Assembly: GCA_038259265.1 (NCBI GenBank)
Contig: JBBSOY010000001.1
Location: forward strand, 562 to 64,561
Reading direction: 5' to 3'
Length of the DNA stretch: 64,000 nucleotides
Source: Minisyncoccia bacterium
Lineage (GTDB): Bacteria > Patescibacteriota > Minisyncoccia > Phycocordibacterales > DATGWK01
Shown piece after piece: positions 11,186 through 33,370 of the stretch. Position numbers and translations under genes: made by a program. The notes below the pieces were generated by a model. It saw only the letters and a list, made by a program, of their open reading frames with translations, had not been told where the DNA came from and made no database searches. Position 1 is the first letter of the stretch. Every line of letters starts with the position of its first letter.

Positions 11186-11240
11186 GAACGAGATTTGAAC
11201 GAGATTTGAACGAGATTTGAACGAGATTTGAACGAGATTT
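11186..11240. repeat. perfect 11-bp tandem repeat (gaacgagattt) x5 in the rpe-tkt intergenic spacer
   Basis: Five exact head-to-tail copies at 11186-11240 followed by the partial acgaaac. On the transcribed minus strand it reads aaatctcgttc x5. Confidence 0.95.
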
Positions 11241-11970
11241 ACGAAACAAGATTGAAAAATTCATCGATGGCTTCCGGAATATTTTCACTTTCAAAAATTG
11301 CTGAACCGATAACGAGCCGATTGGCACCTGCTTCCACCAAGCGCGGTGCGGTCTCCATATTTACACTGCCATCGACACTAATTGTAACGTCTGGATGCGC
11401 AGCCCGCAAACTGGAAATCTTTTCCAACACACGTTCGTCGAATGGCTGACCCTGAAAACCAATTTTCTGAATGCCCATAAACTGCACAAAGTCGACAAGC
11501 TCCGCGACAATGAGCGGTTCCACAACTTCATTCGGCGTTTCAGGATTCAGGGCAATGCCGATTTCTGTATACAAAAACGAATCAATCGACGGCAAAGTAC
11601 TTTTTATTTCCTGTAAAATCGCTTTCGGCTCAGACATGGATTCAACGTGCACGATAATTCTTTTGGCGCCGGCCGCAATCCATTCAGGTACTGCCACGCG
11701 CGGGTTTGAAACCATCAGGTCGACTTCAAAATCGAGTTCTTCCCACAACGGAAAGCCGCCCTCTTCTTTCACAATTTGTGCAAAATCTGGATCGGCAATG
11801 CCACTTTTTTTCGTGTCATCGTTTTTCACATACGGCCACGAACGACTCGGCACAAAAACGCCGTCCATAACATCGATTTGCACATGCGAAACAAGACCCG
11901 ACACGAGTGAAAGATCTTCGTTTAAATCTTCAAAACTTTTTGGCATTATCGCCGGAATGATTTCGATCAT
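11239..11970 (-). CDS. rpe: ribulose-phosphate 3-epimerase
   Basis: 243 aa. HVQIDVMDGVFVP and VDGSVN motifs. Confidence 0.85.
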   Translation of the reverse strand: MIEIIPAIMPKSFEDLNEDLSLVSGLVSHVQIDVMDGVFVPSRSWPYVKNDDTKKSGIADPDFAQIVKEEGGFPLWEELDFEVDLMVSNPRVAVPEWIAAGAKRIIVHVESMSEPKAILQEIKSTLPSIDSFLYTEIGIALNPETPNEVVEPLIVAELVDFVQFMGIQKIGFQGQPFDERVLEKISSLRAAHPDVTISVDGSVNMETAPRLVEAGANRLVIGSAIFESENIPEAIDEFFNLVS

Positions 11971-11972
11971 AG

Positions 11973-12461
11973 CTACATTTTTATTTCGTCGATTTTTCGA
12001 AGGCGACGCACATGGTTTTCATTTTCACTAAACGGAATCGTGAGAAATGTTTTGACGGCTTCTTTGGCATCAGCGACGGAAATAAATCGCGCACCGAGCG
12101 ACAACACGTTTGCGTCGTTGTGTTCGCGAGCGGTTTTAACTTCGAGCGGAATGTGCTGGCCGGGCTCCACATGTTCTGGCCGATACTGCCCATTGAAAAC
12201 CACCGCACGCACATGTCGAAAACGATTGGCGACGATCGCTTCGCCCTGGCCCGAGCCACCAATGATGATTCCCTGCTTCACGCCGCCGCTTTCAGAAATT
12301 TCTCGCGCGAGCGGGATCATGGAATCTGGATAGTCGTCATCTGCGTTAAATTCATGGGCACCAAAATCCTTTACCTCGTAGCCCATATCGCGCAAAAATG
12401 GGATTAGTTCTTGTTTGAGTTCAAAGCCAGCGTGGTCCGCAGCGATCAGTATTGTTTGCAT
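11973..12461 (-). CDS. rpiB: ribose-5-phosphate isomerase B
   Basis: 162 aa. MQTILIAADHAGFELK...IIGGSGQGEAIVANR matches the RpiB/LacAB family. Confidence 0.85.
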   Translation of the reverse strand: MQTILIAADHAGFELKQELIPFLRDMGYEVKDFGAHEFNADDDYPDSMIPLAREISESGGVKQGIIIGGSGQGEAIVANRFRHVRAVVFNGQYRPEHVEPGQHIPLEVKTAREHNDANVLSLGARFISVADAKEAVKTFLTIPFSENENHVRRLRKIDEIKM

Positions 12462-12620
12462 AAAAATAGTATATCAAAAAATATATGGCCTGCGTTTGCG
12501 CATCGCGCGTTGACTTAAATTAATTTAAATGGTATTAAATAGTTAGAAAGGATTTGTATTCTGTGGCTTTTCCCAGGACTTTTCCCTGTTTTTCACCCCG
12601 TTCCTTGTAAAGGAGTTACT

Positions 12621-13709
12621 ATGAAGATTGCGAGGATTGTTGCGATGCTTTTGTTTGCGATCTTGATCCTGTCGTCTGTTCAACAGGTCAATGCCGGCGT
12701 CCAGTTTTCGGTCACCGACCTCGGCACCCTCGGCGGTATACGAATCAGGCCAACCGCGGTCAACAATAATGGCGAGGTCGTTGGGCACTCATCGACGACG
12801 ATCGACGGAAATGAGGGGCCCGACCAGGCTTTTTTCTGGTCGGCAGGTGTCATGACCGGGCTCAATTCCGCAGATACTTTGTCCTCGTGGGCAACCCACA
12901 TCAATGACAGCGGCGTCATTGTCGGCAGAGCATTCACGGCGGCGGGGTCGCGGGCATTCCGATACGACCATGCCGGCGACATGACCATGACGTATCTTCA
13001 TAATATCGGTTTCGAAGCCCTCACTGAAGCGACCGGCATCAACAATGCCGGGCAAATCACAGGCAATGGTCCCGGCGGCGCCTTCGTTTTTACGAGCGAA
13101 AGCAACTGGCACTACCTGCCGGCTGATGGGGTGCGCATGCATTCAGCACGCGGCATCAACAACATCGGCCAAGTCATCGGCTGGGGTGAGTCAAATGATT
13201 TCGCCCAACGAGCCGCGCTTTACAACGGTACGAATGTCATGGACATCGGGCCGTCGGACGGCACATCGAGTGACGCCTACGCTGTGAATGACCTCGGACA
13301 AGTAGCCGGCTGGCTCTACAACGACTCAAACGAGCAGCATGCTGCCATCTTTAGCAATGGCACGGCCCAAGACCTTGGCGCCATGGGTGGCAGTTCGAGC
13401 ACAGCGCTCGGTATCAACATCTTCGGCGACTGCGTTGGCCGGGCTGAATTTGGCCCAGACCCTTCGGCCTATCGCGCGTTCTACTTCGATGGCGACCACA
13501 TGGTCGACCTCAATTCCTTGATCGACCCCGCGCTCGGTTGGTCGCTTCTCGAAGCGACCAACCTCAACGACCTTGGCCAGATCGTCGGATATGGCGTCAA
13601 CGGTGCCGGTCAAGAACGTGCATTCTTGCTCACGCCCGTTCCCGCTCCGGGAACACTCGGCACCTTTGGCCTACTGGCACTCGCCATCAAGCGTCGCCGC
13701 GCCGCCTAA
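12621..13709 (+). CDS. secreted HAF-family repeat protein with PEP-CTERM-like C-terminal sorting signal
   Basis: Signal peptide, then at least 6 repeats of [IV]N[ND]xGQ[IV][IV]G with downstream (H/R)AF motifs. C-terminus TPVPAPGTLGTFGLLALAIKRRRAA (PAP - hydrophobic helix - RRR). GC about 60%, higher than neighbours. Confidence 0.6.
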   Translation: MKIARIVAMLLFAILILSSVQQVNAGVQFSVTDLGTLGGIRIRPTAVNNNGEVVGHSSTTIDGNEGPDQAFFWSAGVMTGLNSADTLSSWATHINDSGVIVGRAFTAAGSRAFRYDHAGDMTMTYLHNIGFEALTEATGINNAGQITGNGPGGAFVFTSESNWHYLPADGVRMHSARGINNIGQVIGWGESNDFAQRAALYNGTNVMDIGPSDGTSSDAYAVNDLGQVAGWLYNDSNEQHAAIFSNGTAQDLGAMGGSSSTALGINIFGDCVGRAEFGPDPSAYRAFYFDGDHMVDLNSLIDPALGWSLLEATNLNDLGQIVGYGVNGAGQERAFLLTPVPAPGTLGTFGLLALAIKRRRAA

Positions 13710-13797
13710 TTTCTTCAAAACAACTTCAAATTTTCTACAAATCAAGTAACATCCTACACCTCAAGGCCGACGGACATCCGTCGGCCTTTTCTATTTA

Positions 13798-14370
13798 TTA
13801 TAATAAAAGTGATTCTTTTTTAACTAATGATCCGAGCTCTTCCCACACTCCCTTTGGCTCATTAGCAAAATCAGTGGGTAATTCTAGATCGCACGCTAAA
13901 TCTCTAATTTGATCGTAGTCAGTTTCGGTTTCCACAAAAATATAATTGGCTGAACCACATATATTGTAAGCCGCCTCCTGTCGACTAATGAAATTTTTAT
14001 TAGCCAATTCAATGTTCTCCCGGCAATATTGAATGAATTTATACTTTCTAACCCCGAGCGGTAGCGCGTTCACATTGTCCATCTTTTTTTTCATTGCTTC
14101 TATCGCCTGAACTTTTTCATCACTAGGTAGGATCTCTAACGCAGACGTGTAGAGTTTTTTTACTTCCTCAGTCGATCCACCAAACATGAGAAGCTGGTCA
14201 ATATTGAGAACCAGGTCAAAAAGTGGTTCATCAGTATGTATAAAAGCGTGCCAATCAATTTTATTGAATGGATTTTTCGTACCTCCATAGCATATACATG
14301 CCTCTTTCGAATCGAGTTCATAATCTGAAATTATTTTTGCGGCCAGTGAAAGAATTTCTTTTCTCGTCAT
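13798..14370 (-). CDS. hypothetical protein (190 aa), AT-rich
   Basis: Clean ORF with no recognisable motif. Compositionally distinct (about 35% GC) from the adjacent GC-rich HAF gene. Confidence 0.5.
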   Translation of the reverse strand: MTRKEILSLAAKIISDYELDSKEACICYGGTKNPFNKIDWHAFIHTDEPLFDLVLNIDQLLMFGGSTEEVKKLYTSALEILPSDEKVQAIEAMKKKMDNVNALPLGVRKYKFIQYCRENIELANKNFISRQEAAYNICGSANYIFVETETDYDQIRDLACDLELPTDFANEPKGVWEELGSLVKKESLLL

Positions 14371-14387
14371 AAATTAATCATAATTTA

Positions 14388-14434
14388 AAATAGAAATATT
14401 TAAACAACCCCGTGACAGAAATGTCACGGGGTTG
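14388..14434 (-). terminator. rho-independent terminator after small ORF 14443..14670
   Basis: 13-bp perfect stem caaccccgtgaca/tgtcacggggttg with a GAAA loop, followed on the minus strand by a T-rich run. Confidence 0.65.
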
Positions 14435-14442
14435 TGGACAAT

Positions 14443-14670
14443 TTATCGCTTGTCCTTGTGAGTGTTGCAGTGGGCAACCTTGCCACCACCACTAGTTTCC
14501 TTCACGACAACATGGCTGTGATTTTCCTTGCTGCCGCCCTTGTCACACAGATGATGTGTATTGCCCTCATTGTCCACCTTGGTATTGGAAGACGAGCCAT
14601 CATCATTCTTTGCCCAACCAGACCATCCAGCCATAGCACACCGCCTTTCATGAAAAAGAACAGGAATCAT
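14443..14670 (-). CDS. small Cys/His/Gly-rich hypothetical protein (about 63-75 aa)
   Basis: ORF ends 9 nt before a strong terminator. Contains HHLCDKGG...HCNTH. Start ambiguous (14670 or the internal MAGWSGW). Confidence 0.35.
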   Translation of the reverse strand: MIPVLFHERRCAMAGWSGWAKNDDGSSSNTKVDNEGNTHHLCDKGGSKENHSHVVVKETSGGGKVAHCNTHKDKR

Positions 14671-14826
14671 ACTCGCAACACACGAGTAATCCCTCTTAAT
14701 AGATTAAGACTTGTGAAAATGTTGTCCATACACAACAACAGATTCTTTAAAATCATAGTAAAACATCCTTACAATTATCACGAAAGAAGCAAAATGAGCC
14801 GTGGTTTGTTGACGAGAAACGACAGC

Positions 14827-15129
14827 TTATTTTTCACCCTTTAAAATCAATCGAAGATTATAGCCACCACGCTCTTGTAATTTTTTCTGACGGATAGACT
14901 CAACTTCACTATATTCGGGTAATTTTTTGAGAGCCTCGACGACTTCCATAAGATCAGCCAGTTCTTCCGGATCACCGGCTTCGGAAAATTCAGCATATTC
15001 TTCCCCTAGCTTTTTAATAAGTTCGACTTTAAATTCCACACCCTCAGCGATTCTTTTTTCGTACAACACACCCTTCGCATCAAGCATCTCGGGGATTTTA
15101 TCTCGAACGAGTTTGTTGTAAATTGTCAT
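14827..15129 (-). CDS. MazG-like / HisE-like nucleotide pyrophosphohydrolase (small all-alpha NTP-PPase)
   Basis: 100 aa. YNKLVRDKIPE ... EE..E...EE.ADL..V acidic helices typical of the MazG/PRA-PH fold. Confidence 0.6.
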   Translation of the reverse strand: MTIYNKLVRDKIPEMLDAKGVLYEKRIAEGVEFKVELIKKLGEEYAEFSEAGDPEELADLMEVVEALKKLPEYSEVESIRQKKLQERGGYNLRLILKGEK

Positions 15130-15144
15130 GTGTGTAAAAATCTT

Positions 15145-16179
15145 TTATTTAACGTACCCCCCAGTCATCACAACATGGTCAACAAGCGCATGGGTATACC
15201 CCATTTCGTTGTCGTACCAGGCCATAACTTTTACGAGATTGCCATCGACGACGCGGGTCAAGGCGAGATCAGCGATCGACGCATGACTGTTGCCCAAAAT
15301 GTCGGACGACACGAGCGGCTCGCTCGTGACCGCAAAAATTCGCTCCCAGCGTTTTTCAGCAGCAGCTTTGGTCAAAATAGAATTGATCTCCTCAACGGTA
15401 GTATTTCTTTTGGCGAGGAACGTAATGTCGACAATCGAACCTGCAGGCACCGGCACGCGCACAGAAATACCGTCAAACTTTCCCTTAAGTTCTGGCAAAG
15501 CCTGAGTGACCGCAATGGCCGCGCCGGTTGACGACGGCACGATATTTTGCGCAGCCGCTCGGCCTTCGCGAAGGTCTTTTTTGCTTGGACCGTCGACGAG
15601 CGACTGGCTGGCGGTGTAGCCGTGCACGGTGTTGAGAATGGCCTTTTCGATACCGATCGTTTCGTTCAAAATTGCCATGACCGGCGAACCGGCATTTGTC
15701 GTACACGATGCATTCGAACTAATGTCGCAGGTTTCGAGTTTTTCATCATTGATACCGAGGAGCACGGTCGCACCTCGAAGGTCGCCCACTGGTTCGTCTT
15801 TTACCGGAGCTGAAATGACCACACGCTTTGCGCCTGCGTCCAAATGCGCTTTAGATTTTTCGTATGAAGTATAAAAACCGGTCGACTCAACAACGACATC
15901 GACGTCGAATTGTTTCCATGGAAGGTTTGCTGGTTCCTTTTCACTTACAAACGCCACTGACTTACCGTCTATGATGAGCGACTTTTTGTCGGCAGAAACT
16001 TCGACGGTAAAATCTGACTTACCATACACCGTATCGTATTTTAAAAGGTACGCGATACTTTCGATGCTTCCGAGGTCGTTGATCGCCACGATGTCGAGCT
16101 CTTTTCGTTCGCGTGCGACTTTTAAAAAGGCTCGGCCGATTCTTCCCGCTCCGTTAATAGCAATTTTTATTTGTTTCAT
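15145..16179 (-). CDS. gap: glyceraldehyde-3-phosphate dehydrogenase
   Basis: 344 aa. INGAGRIGR Rossmann motif, SNASCTTN active-site Cys, WYDNEMGY C-terminus. Confidence 0.93.
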   Translation of the reverse strand: MKQIKIAINGAGRIGRAFLKVARERKELDIVAINDLGSIESIAYLLKYDTVYGKSDFTVEVSADKKSLIIDGKSVAFVSEKEPANLPWKQFDVDVVVESTGFYTSYEKSKAHLDAGAKRVVISAPVKDEPVGDLRGATVLLGINDEKLETCDISSNASCTTNAGSPVMAILNETIGIEKAILNTVHGYTASQSLVDGPSKKDLREGRAAAQNIVPSSTGAAIAVTQALPELKGKFDGISVRVPVPAGSIVDITFLAKRNTTVEEINSILTKAAAEKRWERIFAVTSEPLVSSDILGNSHASIADLALTRVVDGNLVKVMAWYDNEMGYTHALVDHVVMTGGYVK

Positions 16180-16957: not shown

Positions 16958-17392
16958 TCACCGCCGGCTCTTGCGAACCATGTCTTGGATAATTAAATCA
17001 CGGTTGGGGTCATTGCAGTGAGCCACCTGGAAGTCGAAGTGGTCGGCGGCGGCATCAATGTCAGCCTGAGTGATAAACGCGTCTCCGGTGATGCCTGGCG
17101 CATAGAACGATGCGTAGAAACCGCCGTCGCTACGATGTTGGCTCAACACGTAGATACCCGGGAAGATGGGACCGGTCGAACCCATTATTTTTTCTTTGAC
17201 GACGATCACTGCCCCCAGTTTTGCCTCATCCTTCCCGACATCCGTCGGAACAACGAGTCCCGAGACCTTGATCTGGTTCGGCATCGGATTCATGAACTGC
17301 GGAATGACGAGCAAGGCGAGACACACGAGGATCACGACGACGATCAGAATCTCGACTAAATGAAAGGCCCGACTTGCATTGTTTCTTAACAT
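16958..17392 (-). CDS. type IV pilin / pseudopilin-like protein
   Basis: The internal start MLRNNASRA-FHLVEILIVVVILV has a short basic leader and a hydrophobic helix with Glu at +5, the class III prepilin signal, with Ala rather than Gly at -1. The track ORF extends upstream to 17443. Confidence 0.6.
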   Translation of the reverse strand: MLRNNASRAFHLVEILIVVVILVCLALLVIPQFMNPMPNQIKVSGLVVPTDVGKDEAKLGAVIVVKEKIMGSTGPIFPGIYVLSQHRSDGGFYASFYAPGITGDAFITQADIDAAADHFDFQVAHCNDPNRDLIIQDMVRKSRR

Positions 17393-17496
17393 GTTTCTGC
17401 TCCCTCCTGTAAAAGTGCTGGTTGGACGATTCACAATCGTCATTAAATTCTTTCATGAGAATAACATTAAAATTTCATAAATGTCAAGGATTCTAG

Positions 17497-22706: not shown

Positions 22707-25235
22707 TTACTGCACCACCTCAAAAGAAACCGGGTTTGAAAGTACACCTTCTTGGGTTTTTATTAAGACAGTATAGTCCCCTAAAGGTGTAGGATGATCG
22801 CACTCTCCACTACACACATAATCCGAAATACGAGAGGGTATAGTAAAATCAATGATTTGATAGCTAGAAAATGTTGGCACAAGCTGCGCATAACCATCTC
22901 CATGATCAAGCCAAACTATTGGATTATCCGAAAAATCAGACCCCAAGATTCTCACCTCTGAACCAACTCTACCCACAGTAGGGTCAATAGAAAATATTAT
23001 CGGCGCAGTTGTTACGCGAATAGTCACCTGTCTGTCGCGGCGGTAACCAGTTGTCTTATTAATTACGCTCACTGTGACAGGATATATACCTGGTGGAACA
23101 TTTTCAGGAAGACTAAAATAAATCTCTTGAGATACAGTCCCTGTATCATTATCATTAGGAATAATAGGTATTTCAGGGGGGTATGCAGGTAACCATGCGG
23201 CTGGGATCGAGCTTTCAACCTTAAATTTTGATTCCGAACAAACCACAGAATCACCATTATCAAAGAAGAGAGTGATGAAACCATCTTGTCCTACAGTTAA
23301 AGTTGAAGAATGATAAAGGATTGGATCAAAAATAGGTGTTCCCCTCTGACATTCGGGCTGTTTTACATCGACATCAAAGGTTATTGATGATGTGGCAGCT
23401 TGAATAAATGGACCGATTGTAATTCCGTTATTTACATCAACAAATACTTGCCCGTAGTTTAAGGTTGCTCTCGACAAATCTGTGTTCCAATCCTGAGCGG
23501 TTGGATTCATGTCTAATAGGTGAGGAAATTGATTAACAGGCGATGAGCGTACAATCTTATTGACGAATAAACCCTGGAGATTGTAGAACGTGTCAAAAAG
23601 AGATCCCTGTGTCATACCTATATCAAATCCAGTTCCATTACGATGCTCAAGATAAAAAGGAATGACGGTAGAATTTTCTCTTTGAATTGTTGCGAAGTTT
23701 TTTGAAATATTAATATTTCCGGCCATGACCCCTGCTTCAAGAGCATCTAGGGTGTATCGACCACTTTGTGTGATTGCGATTTTATTTTGAGGTTCTATCC
23801 AACCTAATAACTCTTTGTAAAATGCATTAAAGTGAGTCGCCCGTACACCTGTACCCATCACATCGAAACTGTTTCCATACTCCACATGATCGCAATTTCC
23901 TCTTAATCTTTGGGTTCCACAATCTAAACCGTTTGCGTGCATAACACCCAAATTGTGCCCTGCCTCATGGCTAAAGACAGATTCAAAGTTGCTCAAAACA
24001 TATGGCCCAAGCGGACCATTATATGACTGGCTTAACTCCAAAATTGACGAAAGACCAACCCACCCAATTGATACCAGGTGCTCTGTGCCTTGTGTGGTTA
24101 ATGATACTTTTCCAACAGTTCCTAAACCTCCATAAGTATCTGAAGTAACAACAAATAAACGATCATACGAGCTTAAATCAATGGTGTTATCCGTAATAAA
24201 TTCTTCTATCTCGGGAATATCAACATACGATGAATGATTTCCGTTTCTTGGAAATGGATACCAACCCAACACATCCCCAGAAAAATTAATTTTATTATAC
24301 GATTGCTCTCGGTAAAAATTGTTAAACTTGCCATCAAAAAGAATATTGTGGATGGCGTTTGGAGAAATATTTATCGGATGGGAGTCTCTGAAATCAAGAA
24401 GGAGTACCAAGGTTCGCTGTTCTCCAACTGAATCTGGCTCCTCACGTGGAGAATACGGGTTAACTGGTGGAACAATATGTTCAATGCCTTCAATGTGAGC
24501 AACGAGCACATTTCCTATGCGTAGCCCTTCAATCGTAAACGTTTCACCCGAAGTCGTATATAGAGGGGAGGTAACATACAGTTCTAGTTTTTCATTTCCC
24601 GCTTTCAGAAAGTACCTGAAGTAAGAATTTTTTGAATCTTTAAAATCATCATAGTGTACGACATCTATTTTCCCTGTGAGTGTTACAGGCTTCTCAATTC
24701 CTAAAACAAACGATTGAGGAATCTTTTTTATTGTTTCATCTTTTAATTGAGCAGAGAAAAATAAATTTGCATCCATTTTTGCGAGAGTCGTCAAAAGACT
24801 CGACCGCTCGTCAATTAAAATTTTTAAAGAGGGAGATTGCGCAACCTGCGTACCATATTCACCGTTTTCCGGAAGTTTCTTAATGGAATTTACTGCCTGA
24901 GCACTCAGAGTATCGACTTCTAAAAATTTTGATTCGGAGTCCTGTTGCTGCAAGCTAGCACCGTTTCTTGAGGTTGGTGTGGGGTCATTCTTTAGAAATA
25001 TTGGGATTTGTTTCTGCACATTAAATTCTCCTATTTGCTGGTTAATTCGACGAACTAATAACAATATTTCTTGAGGATTTATTTTCTCTGAAGAAAATTC
25101 ATTATTTTCTTTTTGACTATTGAGCACCACCGCTGCAAGTCCTTTTTGATTTTGATGTCGAAAAAAGATTCCAGCATACACAGCAGCCATTACAATAACC
25201 AGACCGATAATTATATTTACAAAAAAAAATTTCAT
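22707..25235 (-). CDS. secreted metzincin-type zinc metalloprotease (HExxHxxGxxH) with C-terminal IPT/TIG-like domain
   Basis: 842 aa. N-terminal TM/signal, HEAGHNLGVMH zinc-binding motif, C-terminal APIIFSIDPTVGRVGSEVRILGSDFS resembling IPT/TIG. AT-rich (about 38% GC). Confidence 0.65.
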   Translation of the reverse strand: MKFFFVNIIIGLVIVMAAVYAGIFFRHQNQKGLAAVVLNSQKENNEFSSEKINPQEILLLVRRINQQIGEFNVQKQIPIFLKNDPTPTSRNGASLQQQDSESKFLEVDTLSAQAVNSIKKLPENGEYGTQVAQSPSLKILIDERSSLLTTLAKMDANLFFSAQLKDETIKKIPQSFVLGIEKPVTLTGKIDVVHYDDFKDSKNSYFRYFLKAGNEKLELYVTSPLYTTSGETFTIEGLRIGNVLVAHIEGIEHIVPPVNPYSPREEPDSVGEQRTLVLLLDFRDSHPINISPNAIHNILFDGKFNNFYREQSYNKINFSGDVLGWYPFPRNGNHSSYVDIPEIEEFITDNTIDLSSYDRLFVVTSDTYGGLGTVGKVSLTTQGTEHLVSIGWVGLSSILELSQSYNGPLGPYVLSNFESVFSHEAGHNLGVMHANGLDCGTQRLRGNCDHVEYGNSFDVMGTGVRATHFNAFYKELLGWIEPQNKIAITQSGRYTLDALEAGVMAGNINISKNFATIQRENSTVIPFYLEHRNGTGFDIGMTQGSLFDTFYNLQGLFVNKIVRSSPVNQFPHLLDMNPTAQDWNTDLSRATLNYGQVFVDVNNGITIGPFIQAATSSITFDVDVKQPECQRGTPIFDPILYHSSTLTVGQDGFITLFFDNGDSVVCSESKFKVESSIPAAWLPAYPPEIPIIPNDNDTGTVSQEIYFSLPENVPPGIYPVTVSVINKTTGYRRDRQVTIRVTTAPIIFSIDPTVGRVGSEVRILGSDFSDNPIVWLDHGDGYAQLVPTFSSYQIIDFTIPSRISDYVCSGECDHPTPLGDYTVLIKTQEGVLSNPVSFEVVQ

Positions 25236-25244
25236 TGTTTAGCG

Positions 25245-25730
25245 TTATATCCTATTTGGGTGTAACGAGAATGCCGCTTGGTTGTGACCGATATCATTTA
25301 TTGCGCCAACAATGATACTTCGGTTTTCTTCCTTATACCCTTCCGCCTTTATAAAAACAGAATACATTCCGGCCGGAATACTAAAAATATACGACGAGAC
25401 CTCCGTAGTTACACTTGCAAGAACGAGATTATTTTTGGAAATTGTAATCTCAGCTTTTTTTCTGAACGGAGAATCAAACGTCCCCCCATCAAATACTGAA
25501 ATCTTGAACGGAAAAACCTTCATATTTGAGTTGGTGGTACTGATTGATTTTTGAGACTTTGAAGTGTTCTCAGTTTCAGTCTGTGTAGTTGTTTTTGCTT
25601 GAGGAATATTAGAAGCACCATCGACAGCACCTTTGTTTTTTAAATGATAGTAGATACCTCCAACGATTCCCAACACTGCAATAGTTATTAATATAAACCC
25701 CACAAGAAATCCTCTTTGTAAATTTTTCAT
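25245..25730 (-). CDS. membrane-anchored protein with carboxypeptidase-regulatory-like (CarbopepD_reg) beta-sandwich domain
   Basis: Start trimmed to MKNLQRGF (ATG 25730) because the longer track ORF overlaps the upstream terminator. C-terminal ISVFDGGTFDSP...AGMYSVFIKAEGYKE matches the CarbopepD_reg pattern. Confidence 0.45.
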   Translation of the reverse strand: MKNLQRGFLVGFILITIAVLGIVGGIYYHLKNKGAVDGASNIPQAKTTTQTETENTSKSQKSISTTNSNMKVFPFKISVFDGGTFDSPFRKKAEITISKNNLVLASVTTEVSSYIFSIPAGMYSVFIKAEGYKEENRSIIVGAINDIGHNQAAFSLHPNRI

Positions 25731-25745
25731 ACTATAAATTAGTAT

Positions 25746-25780
25746 AACAAAAAACCCACCGAAGGGTGGGTGTTTTGTTT
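25746..25780 (-). terminator. rho-independent terminator after the RRM protein gene
   Basis: acccacc-cttc-ggtgggt stem-loop followed by TTTTTT on the minus strand, with a T-run on the plus side as well. Confidence 0.65.
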
Positions 25781-25845
25781 GGTCATTTAATTGATTGGAA
25801 GATGTTTGGTGTTCCGTACTCGGTTTCCAAAACCCTCCGTTCGAA

Positions 25846-26124
25846 TTACATGTCTCCACGTCGTGGAGGGCGGTCCGTCATAGGACGAGCTTCGCTCACG
25901 GTGAGATTGCGGCCATCAAAATCCTTTCCGTTCCACATGTCAATCGCTGCCATCGCTTCTTCGTCAGAAGACATTTCGACGAAACCGAAGCCTTTTGAGC
26001 GACCGGTCATGCGGTCAGTGATAACACTTGCGGAAACGACGTTTCCTGCCTTTGAGAAAGCTTCCTTCAAGTTCGAATCAGTCGAGCTATAAGGGATACC
26101 TCCTACATACAATTTCTTTGCCAT
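25846..26124 (-). CDS. RNA-binding protein with RRM domain (glycine-rich RBP-like)
   Basis: 92 aa. RNP-2 (LYVGGIPY) and RNP-1 (KGFGFVEM) motifs. Confidence 0.85.
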   Translation of the reverse strand: MAKKLYVGGIPYSSTDSNLKEAFSKAGNVVSASVITDRMTGRSKGFGFVEMSSDEEAMAAIDMWNGKDFDGRNLTVSEARPMTDRPPRRGDM

Positions 26125-26287: not shown

Positions 26288-27361
26288 TCACCGAACTTCG
26301 CAGACAAGTATTTTTGGTCGAAGATATGCATTAACCGATGTCAGGAATTTAAGTTCGAAGCTTCTGACTATTTTAAATTTTGATTTTAAAAGGATTTTCT
26401 CGAGCATGTCGTGTTCGGTGGTGTATACCACGAGTCTGCCTGCTGATGTCAGCGACTTTTCAGCGTACCCAACGAAACGTATATACAACTTCTCGAGATC
26501 TTGGTTTTTTCCAATGACCATACCAAACGGCAGATCTGCAGTGATGACATCGAACATACCGAGGTCTGCACCGAGATCTGAACCAGCACCTAGACCAACA
26601 TCTGGACCAAGACTTGGCGTATCAAAAATGTCTTTTTCGTGCAGACGGATTCGACCAATAAGGCCGGCTTTTTTAATATTCTGAATCGCGAGCGAGAGAT
26701 ATTTTTTATCAGAATCAAAACCCACCAGCGGACCCGCATTCGGATATTCGAGCCCGGCTTCAATAAGCAAGGTGGCGCTGCCGGAAAAAATATTTAAATA
26801 CGATGTCTTCGTCTGTAGTTCACAGAGCGTATTCATGGCAAACGCAATGGTCGGATCAATCGCACCGCTCATGTTTCGAACCTTATACTCGCGCATCGAC
26901 AACGGCCGAGGCGTGATCTGAACGCCAATTTCCCAGACTTCCCCCAGCTTTATGACATGAATTTTTAGATCCGCCTCTTCCGCCTCAACCAAACCAAATG
27001 TTTCGTTTACATACCGAGCGATGCTTCGGGCTTGAGGAGAATCTGAACCGGCACATGAGAGTTTGAAAGTTTTAAACGCGGTCGGATTTTTATTTTTTAT
27101 GAGCTCAATCAAATCGCCGATAATAGATTTATGTTTTGAAACATAGAGCAAATGATATTCTGGATCCTGCGTCACCAGATATGCACGAGAAACACTTTTC
27201 AGACTCGCAACCTTTGAAAAATCCTCGACGAAATCGAGATAGAGCGAATCAATGTCAGTTCGGGCAATATGAAAATCAGCTCGACTTCGAACTTCGTTTA
27301 AAACAAACTCTTGCAAGCCCCACACAAATGAGAGCTTAATCTGTATCTTTTGAGTATCCAT
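26288..27361 (-). CDS. THUMP-domain RNA methyltransferase (class I SAM MTase, DLPFG motif; Trm14/RlmL-like)
   Basis: N-terminal THUMP-like region, FDVITADLPFG motif IV of N2-guanine/N6-adenine RNA MTases. Start trimmed to MDTQK (27361) because the track ORF overlaps tRNA-Ser. Confidence 0.6.
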   Translation of the reverse strand: MDTQKIQIKLSFVWGLQEFVLNEVRSRADFHIARTDIDSLYLDFVEDFSKVASLKSVSRAYLVTQDPEYHLLYVSKHKSIIGDLIELIKNKNPTAFKTFKLSCAGSDSPQARSIARYVNETFGLVEAEEADLKIHVIKLGEVWEIGVQITPRPLSMREYKVRNMSGAIDPTIAFAMNTLCELQTKTSYLNIFSGSATLLIEAGLEYPNAGPLVGFDSDKKYLSLAIQNIKKAGLIGRIRLHEKDIFDTPSLGPDVGLGAGSDLGADLGMFDVITADLPFGMVIGKNQDLEKLYIRFVGYAEKSLTSAGRLVVYTTEHDMLEKILLKSKFKIVRSFELKFLTSVNAYLRPKILVCEVR

Positions 27362-27365
27362 GATG

Positions 27366-27453
27366 TGGCGGAGGGTAGGAGATTCGAACTCCTGGTGGGT
27401 TGCCCCACACACGCTTTCCAAGCGTGCGCACTAGACCGCTATGCGAACCCTCC
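27366..27453 (-). tRNA. tRNA-Ser (anticodon GGA), CCA encoded
   Basis: Minus strand GGAGGGTTCGCATAGCGGTCTAGTGCGCACGCTTGGAAAGCGTGTGTGGGGCAACCCACCAGGAGTTCGAATCTCCTACCCTCCGCCA. 7-bp acceptor stem, anticodon loop TTGGAAA, long variable arm, T-loop GTTCGAATC. Confidence 0.85.

Positions 27454-31699: not shown

Positions 31700-33370
<1,671 letters not shown>

Follow-up and report, generated by a model that had tools for sequence, protein, structure and literature searches.

The PEP-CTERM domain was defined as a sorting signal restricted to bacteria that have an outer membrane, exopolysaccharide (EPS) genes and a homologue of EpsH, and its carriers usually encode many PEP-CTERM proteins, with a median of eight per genome (PMC1569441). 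For Patescibacteria, the lineages of the candidate phyla radiation (CPR), absence of an outer membrane is the state that has been proposed (PMC12102498). A protein with such a tail is considered here in a 64,000-nt stretch of contig JBBSOY010000001.1, called the window throughout. The open reading frame (ORF) at 12621-13709 encodes 362 aa from an ATG start, is intact, and had been singled out in an original prediction, made from the letters alone, as a GC-rich HAF-repeat surface protein of mosaic origin with a PEP-CTERM-like anchor that might be a novel variant sorting signal. The description of the protein and of its acquisition stands, but the novel signal does not: what is unusual is the host, while the protein family is an ordinary one and the signal is not of a new kind. 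The gene has probably been acquired horizontally, and its product is best seen as a surface propeller, exported through Sec and held in the membrane by a degenerate tail.

Membership of the HAF-repeat family of secreted proteins is established by the NCBIfam model TIGR02913 (HAF_rpt), which reaches 123 bits in seven stretches of the protein with a cutoff of 22.65; TIGR03803, the accession first proposed for this repeat, was the wrong model. Cores of the repeat, with the pattern [IVL]N[ND]xG[QEV][IV]xG, are found at residues 47, 94, 140, 179, 222 and 315, with a degenerate core at 265, and this pattern is far above chance expectation. The Pfam family DUF3466 (PF11949) is also matched (37.5 bits, gathering threshold 25.1), though only over profile positions 437-526 of 609, so that the likeness is an overlap at the level of the repeat and not membership of the full-length family. 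At the N-terminus, as read by eye from the translation, a basic start and a hydrophobic core lead to a V-N-A motif before G, and the homologues have equivalent N-termini; this is the layout of a Sec signal peptide, with a predicted cut after VNA25. An AlphaFold2 model (m25ac22666773; mean pLDDT 93.5, pTM 0.89), built from an alignment of 65 homologues (A1), places a helix at residues 2-25, 28 beta-strands in seven sets of four over residues 29-339, and a second helix at 343-361, and suggests a seven-bladed beta-propeller. The top Foldseek matches in the PDB are all beta-propellers (TM-scores 0.42-0.61, E 3e-8 to 1e-5, identity 12-17%), and a PDB sequence search with the protein returned no relative.

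The C-terminus (...AFLLTPVPAPGTLGTFGLLALAIKRRRAA) can be laid out as AFLLT-P-V-P-A-P-GTLGTFGLLALAI-KRRR-AA, that is, P-A-P, 13 hydrophobic residues and a basic cluster, and the PEP-CTERM-like domain takes up residues 339-362, the last 24 of the protein. P341 does not vary across the 65 sequences of A1, and conservation reaches at least 90% at P339, E342 and P343; the window protein has alanine at position 342, so the Pro-Glu-Pro that defines PEP-CTERM is broken by a Glu-to-Ala change. Homologue tails end in AFLLTPVPEPxTLxLL...RRR, and the window tail aligns with them column by column. Many of these homologues carry PF07589 matches or PEP-CTERM names (Thermoguttaceae, Acidobacteriaceae, Coleofasciculus). 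PEP is present in 117 of 127 homologous tails and a handful have PVP, PLP or PIP, whereas PAP occurs in the window protein only. Its hydrophobic segment stands at the 5th percentile of the homologues, whose median is 16 residues. Because the columns match those of the homologues except that E342 has become A, the tail is, on this alignment, a degenerate PEP-CTERM domain, homologous by descent through P339, P341, E342 and P343, in which the signature glutamate has been lost. Profile scores are borderline. With the tail isolated and framed in three ways, TIGR02595 gives 16.7, 15.8 and 17.8 bits (cutoff 16); it is not reported on the full-length protein, and PF07589 gives 13.8 bits against a cutoff of 20.7. 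The original prediction had staked itself on HAF and PEP-CTERM profile matches and on a helix other than an ordinary single-pass anchor; the HAF match proved strong and the PEP-CTERM match borderline, and the helix may act as a plain membrane anchor.

The host of this gene belongs to a lineage in which such a tail would be unusual. GroEL (31700-33364) is 80-87% identical to metagenomic proteins and 74-78% identical to proteins named Parcubacteria group, Candidatus Taylorbacteria and Candidatus Paceibacterota, and on this comparison the host is placed in Parcubacteria/Paceibacteria (CPR, Patescibacteria). The neighbourhood fits the same assignment, with a split transketolase, rpe, rpiB, GAPDH and ribonucleotide reductase (RNR), as do genes for a type IV pilin-like protein, UppP, HtpX, RNase J and M14 carboxypeptidases. 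In related loci, 80 of which were collected by a metagenome scan with RpiB, the conserved order is RNR-alpha, RNR-beta, GAPDH, rpiB, rpe, tktN, tktC. The distance from the end of GAPDH to rpiB is 0-40 nt in four of these loci (L015, L017, L024 and L029) and 2684 nt in the window, where a 2.7-kb insertion breaks this adjacency and brings in the HAF gene, on the strand opposite to its neighbours, together with two small AT-rich genes. None of the three has a match in the loci of the relatives. In the closest relative, L011 (RpiB 81% and RNR-beta 94% identical), the slot measures 677 nt and is occupied by the gene (L011 5336-5980) of a 214-aa protein that is unrelated and has a membrane helix at its N-terminus; the interval between GAPDH and rpiB looks like a hotspot where variable genes for envelope or secreted proteins reside. 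Borders of the transposon type were sought at the insert and none was seen, short repeats being at chance level only.

Base composition also sets the gene apart. Its GC content is 58.3%, close to the 60% first estimated, and its GC at third codon positions (GC3) is 68.3%, in a window of 45.0% GC; both values are the most extreme among 63 mechanically called ORFs (z = 2.6-3.2 by comparison set), which, along with the broken adjacency, bears out the proposed mosaic acquisition. High GC as a mere effect of a Gly/Ala-rich protein was considered and rejected, because GC3 is also the highest in the window. AT-rich orphan genes had been described on both flanks. Downstream this largely holds, the gene at 13798-14370 having 37.5% GC (some 35% had been estimated) and being a near-orphan more than an orphan, with 35 weak relatives (E<1e-3) among 1.84 billion representatives; upstream it does not, the neighbour being the housekeeping gene rpiB at 50% GC. 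A gene of 58% GC beside two of 37-40% GC suggests that a permissive slot has taken up genes more than once.

Besides an identical database entry (P0001) on an NCBI contig of 65,319 nt, the closest homologues of the protein are 38-43% identical to it. Genome matches fall in Planctomycetaceae, Pirellulales, Phenylobacterium, Pyrinomonadaceae, Gemmatimonadota and Methyloversatilis, in the phyla Planctomycetota, Acidobacteriota, Proteobacteria and Gemmatimonadota, with 48-72% GC. Comparison with PHROGs revealed no phage link. The donor was presumably a GC-richer bacterium with PEP-CTERM/exosortase sorting.

A few relatives come from contigs of low GC. P0005 (locus L091), 41% identical to the window protein, has in common with it a degenerate blade (GNGxGGxF...NWxxLP), and a search from P0005 gave P0241 (L095; ERZ27298648 k119_516428), 59% identical to P0005, and P0242/P0346 (L096-98). 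The blade recurs in P0242 and, in a diverged version, in P0241, and the hydrophobic tails are likewise short (13-16 aa). Unlike the window gene, all of these genes keep the canonical PEP, stand in other genomic contexts and are partly ameliorated, with 42-47% GC where the remaining DNA of the contigs has 37-39%; GC3 of the P0241 gene is 0.32, like that of its neighbours. Neighbour-joining bootstraps unite the window protein, P0005 and P0241 at 57%, and P0005 with P0241 at 100%. A five-member clade with P0242/P0346 receives 3%, and P0242 does not join. Since repeat proteins align ambiguously, the subclade of three is tentative. Genes of these contigs gave only weak BLAST matches to the CPR loci, and no exosortase was found in the flanks of the HAF homologues on L091 and L095-L098. 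Neighbouring genes on these contigs include uvrA, uvrC, ddl, a gene for a protein of more than 2094 aa, an IS200-type transposase, and NERD and HEPN genes.

The partners that a PEP-CTERM protein needs were looked for in the window and in the related loci. As first noted, neither an exosortase nor an EPS locus is present in the 64-kb window, whose gene content was checked along with its polytopic membrane proteins (HtpX, UppP, MFS, ZIP, DedA and YdjM), and 580 kb of related loci likewise hold no exosortase, EPS genes or second PEP-CTERM tail. A hidden Markov model of the tail, made from the homologues, found only the HAF protein among 2557 ORFs of the window and the 80 related loci (644 kb in all); as a positive control, 120 kb of Gram-negative loci were scanned with it and gave eight or more tails, four of them within 13 kb of L002. 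A literature search gave no paper that links exosortase or PEP-CTERM with CPR, Patescibacteria or Parcubacteria, and a search on the HAF repeat gave nothing relevant. With 64 kb of the genome visible, an exosortase is probably lacking from the genome as a whole.

Altogether, the explanation that accounts best for these data, and that is held to be probable, is one of horizontal acquisition and reuse. A Parcubacteria/Paceibacteria genome would have received the HAF gene from a GC-richer, exosortase-using bacterium, in the variable slot between GAPDH and rpiB. The protein would be exported via Sec by its N-terminal signal peptide and cleaved after VNA25, and the hydrophobic segment with KRRR would act as a stop-transfer anchor in a single membrane. 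As this anchoring would leave the propeller outside, it is proposed to be shown at the cell surface, where it may serve as a binding module, adhesin or lectin-like, without exosortase processing. The Glu-to-Ala change would then reflect relaxed selection on exosortase recognition, which fits a host that probably has neither an exosortase nor an outer membrane.

Several points weigh against this explanation. The exosortase search spans 64 kb of the genome, and an exosortase could be encoded elsewhere. A few homologues with PVP, PLP or PIP belong to hosts that presumably have an exosortase, so the Glu-to-Ala change need not abolish recognition. Thirteen hydrophobic residues are few for a stable bilayer anchor, and the segment of P0241, a homologue with canonical PEP, is also 13 residues long. 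The codon-usage distance of the gene is only mildly atypical (0.199 vs 0.154 +/- 0.037). Lastly, if the hosts of the low-GC contigs are also Patescibacteria, the PEP signal may have been maintained by selection in the group.

Among the other explanations, the one that survives best is that the gene is a recent passenger, neutral or decaying, poorly transcribed or mis-sorted, in which the Glu-to-Ala change is a first step of decay. This is unlikely, though several points favour it: GC3, at 68%, is un-ameliorated where the host has about 48%, the gene is a singleton for which none of the relatives has an orthologue, the slot carries other cargo in the closest relative, and the signature residue is lost. 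Yet the ORF is full-length and free of frameshifts and internal stops, all seven blades are present in a fold predicted with pLDDT 93.5, and the gene is preceded by a strong ribosome-binding site (AAGGAG) and followed by a clean terminator. Moreover, the reduced genomes of CPR bacteria seldom keep dead weight.

Rather unlikely, too, is a working sorting signal, in which an exosortase-like enzyme encoded outside the window would cleave VPAP/VPEP tails and attach or release the propeller. All other features of PEP-CTERM are kept, and the isolated tail reaches the TIGR02595 cutoff in two of its three framings. In addition, P0005, P0241 and P0242/P0346 have a canonical PEP in contigs of about 38% GC and are partly ameliorated, which suggests long-term selection on the motif in low-GC hosts. 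Against this, 64 kb of the genome contain no exosortase, 644 kb of DNA of the lineage contain no second substrate where genomes with the system have a median of eight, the literature searched makes no link between exosortase and Patescibacteria/CPR, and the copy proven to lie inside a CPR genome is precisely the one without the glutamate. The broader idea that PEP-CTERM-type tails are maintained and used in monoderm Patescibacteria is doubtful. Should the hosts of the low-GC contigs turn out to be CPR bacteria, it would imply either an undescribed exosortase-like enzyme that works without an outer membrane, or episymbionts that show a host-type, EPS-matrix-directed surface protein for docking to PEP-CTERM/EPS-producing Gram-negative hosts.

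An artefact of assembly or binning, by which a GC-rich Gram-negative gene was wrongly joined to a CPR contig, could be suspected from a gene about 13 GC points above the window (58.3% vs 45.0%) with neighbours in the insert at 37-40% GC. However, Logan contigs of run SRR24807092 match the window at 11211-13598 and 13651-15842 with 100% identity. The first takes in rpe and rpiB as well as 978 nt from the start of the HAF gene; the second takes in its final 59 nt, including the tail, and runs through the two small genes into GAPDH. A second assembler thus reproduces both junctions and joins each end of the gene to its flank independently, hence the join is not chimeric; the Logan contigs leave 52 nt uncovered, inside the gene and away from the junctions, and both flanks are syntenic CPR genes. 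This explanation, already largely refuted, is very improbable. Equally improbable is the variant signal raised originally, a genuinely new 'PAP-CTERM' signal that an undescribed enzyme of its own would process: a motif other than PEP in an atypical host speaks for it, but it amounts to a single Glu-to-Ala change in an otherwise ordinary PEP-CTERM tail, the sole PAP among 127 homologous tails, and a dedicated new signal should have several substrates, as all known sorting systems do in each genome (PMC1569441), when no second such tail exists in the 644 kb of the window and related loci.

Table 1. Features of the HAF gene and its surroundings in the window.
Feature	Coordinates	Strand	Basis
HAF-repeat coding sequence	12621..13709	+	ORF of 362 aa, ATG start, intact
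Predicted signal peptide, aa 1-25, MKIARIVAMLLFAILILSSVQQVNA then G	12621..12695	+	Read from translation
Predicted seven-bladed beta-propeller, 7 HAF repeats, aa 27-339	12699..13637	+	AlphaFold2 and Foldseek
P341-A342-P343 (CCC GCT CCG), at the site of the PEP motif	13641..13649	+	Alignment A1
Hydrophobic segment GTLGTFGLLALAI (13 aa), KRRR and AA	13650..13706	+	AlphaFold2 helix 343-361
Possible sigma-70-type promoter	12510..12538	+	TTGACT, 17 nt, TGgTATTAA; weak candidate, by eye
Shine-Dalgarno AAGGAG	12610..12615	+	5 nt upstream of the HAF-gene ATG; sequence read
Intrinsic terminator	13763..13798	+	11-bp stem with 8 G-C pairs, then T-rich run; inverted repeat I6
Lineage-specific insert, HAF gene and two AT-rich small genes	12462..15144		Comparison with relatives
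190-aa near-orphan	13798..14370	-	37.5% GC, convergent, within insert
100-aa helical hypothetical protein	14827..15129	-	39.6% GC, within insert
rpiB, left border	11973..12461	-	PF02502, 133.7 bits; 50% GC; 81-83% identical to RpiB of L011 and L012
GAPDH, right border	15145..16179	-	Gp_dh_N and Gp_dh_C matches; 83% identical to GAPDH of L011

With its own ribosome-binding site and terminator (Table 1), the HAF gene is predicted to be a complete transcription unit. The possible promoter was missed by a consensus scan because position 6 of its -10 element is A. Within the coding region, a perfect 13-nt inverted repeat is present at 13536-13563 (GGTTGGTCGCTTC ga GAAGCGACCAACC), about 35 nt upstream of the end of Logan contig L009 (13598); it may have caused the break in that assembly, or the two may coincide by chance. 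As to the other genes of the insert, the 190-aa protein has no Pfam or NCBIfam match. Its residues 1-85 and 93-185 match separate standalone proteins of about 80-110 aa, which gives it the look of two rare small domains fused together. The 100-aa hypothetical protein has no Pfam, NCBIfam or meaningful PDB match. Just upstream of the start of the 190-aa gene lies a perfect 14-nt palindrome (14404-14435, ACAACCCCGTGACA / TGTCACGGGGTTGT, with a 4-nt loop), which could be an operator or a bidirectional terminator.

Other parts of the window showed irregularities of their own. The type IV pilin-like protein (16958-17443, minus strand) has an N-terminus that matches the class III signal region of GspG/ComGC; its gene has the second highest GC3 of the window (0.64), and no matching gene was found in L011 at the same position. 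An AT-rich island at 22707-25859 (38.9% GC) encodes proteins of 842 and 204 aa, the larger with an N-terminal membrane helix and weak matches to reprolysin/M11-like zinc proteases, and may be another acquired surface or secreted module. From 56001 to 64000, GC falls to 37.0%, compared with 46.1% for 1-56000. Pfam identifies HIT and NUDIX genes in this segment and places PF06983 at the upstream edge; from reading of N-termini, the segment also includes an S66-peptidase-like gene and methionyl-tRNA synthetase (62411-63832). Since Logan contig L099 spans the shift near 56 kb (55207-58208, 100%), it is not an obvious mis-join. Finally, the mechanically called ORF 26288-27421 (TTG start, RMKL-like methyltransferase) overlaps at its 5' end with tRNA-Ser(GGA) at 27366-27453, and its true start must therefore be further downstream.

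If horizontal acquisition with a degenerate anchor is the right explanation, a PEP-CTERM-derived protein, cleanly assembled in a Patescibacteria genome, offers a natural experiment on the fate of such a signal once it has moved to a host probably unable to process it. It would also document the gain, between phyla, of a surface-binding module by a lineage of episymbiont type, at the same slot between GAPDH and rpiB that in the closest relative is occupied by the gene of another surface protein. As surface proteins are the likeliest mediators of attachment between CPR bacteria and their hosts, the HAF protein is a reasonable candidate adhesin.

Compared with solved structures, the HAF protein is best likened to all-beta propellers, namely the extracellular sensor domain of PknD, the Pizza designs of NHL propellers derived from PknD, and the seven-bladed PHL/PLL lectins of Photorhabdus, which are the top Foldseek matches. 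PknD and Pizza have six blades where seven are predicted here, and in all three cases the likeness is an analogy of fold, without relationship at the level of sequence; extracellular propellers that bind ligands or sugars would be the functional analogy. Gram-positive-type sorting signals are those that would be expected in Patescibacteria. The LPXTG tails of the sortase system and the MYXO-CTERM tails follow the same tripartite logic as the window tail (motif, hydrophobic helix, basic cluster), but no LPXTG motif was found in the last 40 residues or by an NCBIfam scan of the tail at E<=10, and MYXO-CTERM (TIGR03901) gives 12.8-13.3 bits, below its cutoff of 20. The closest described proteins are the HAF-repeat PEP-CTERM proteins of Planctomycetota, Acidobacteriota, Cyanobacteria and Proteobacteria (e.g. 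P0004, P0014, P0029, P0046). These have a similar length (350-380 aa), the same order of signal peptide, about seven HAF repeats and PEP tail, and an identity of 38-43% over nearly the full length. As in the window protein, their last blade (DLNSLIDPxSGWxLxxAxxINDxGQIVGYG) is followed by AFLLTPVP.P, a hydrophobic stretch and Arg/Lys. The window protein differs from them in its Patescibacteria host, in Ala for Glu and in a hydrophobic segment at the short end of the range, and its gene is a singleton, whereas theirs often stand beside paralogues in Gram-negative loci.

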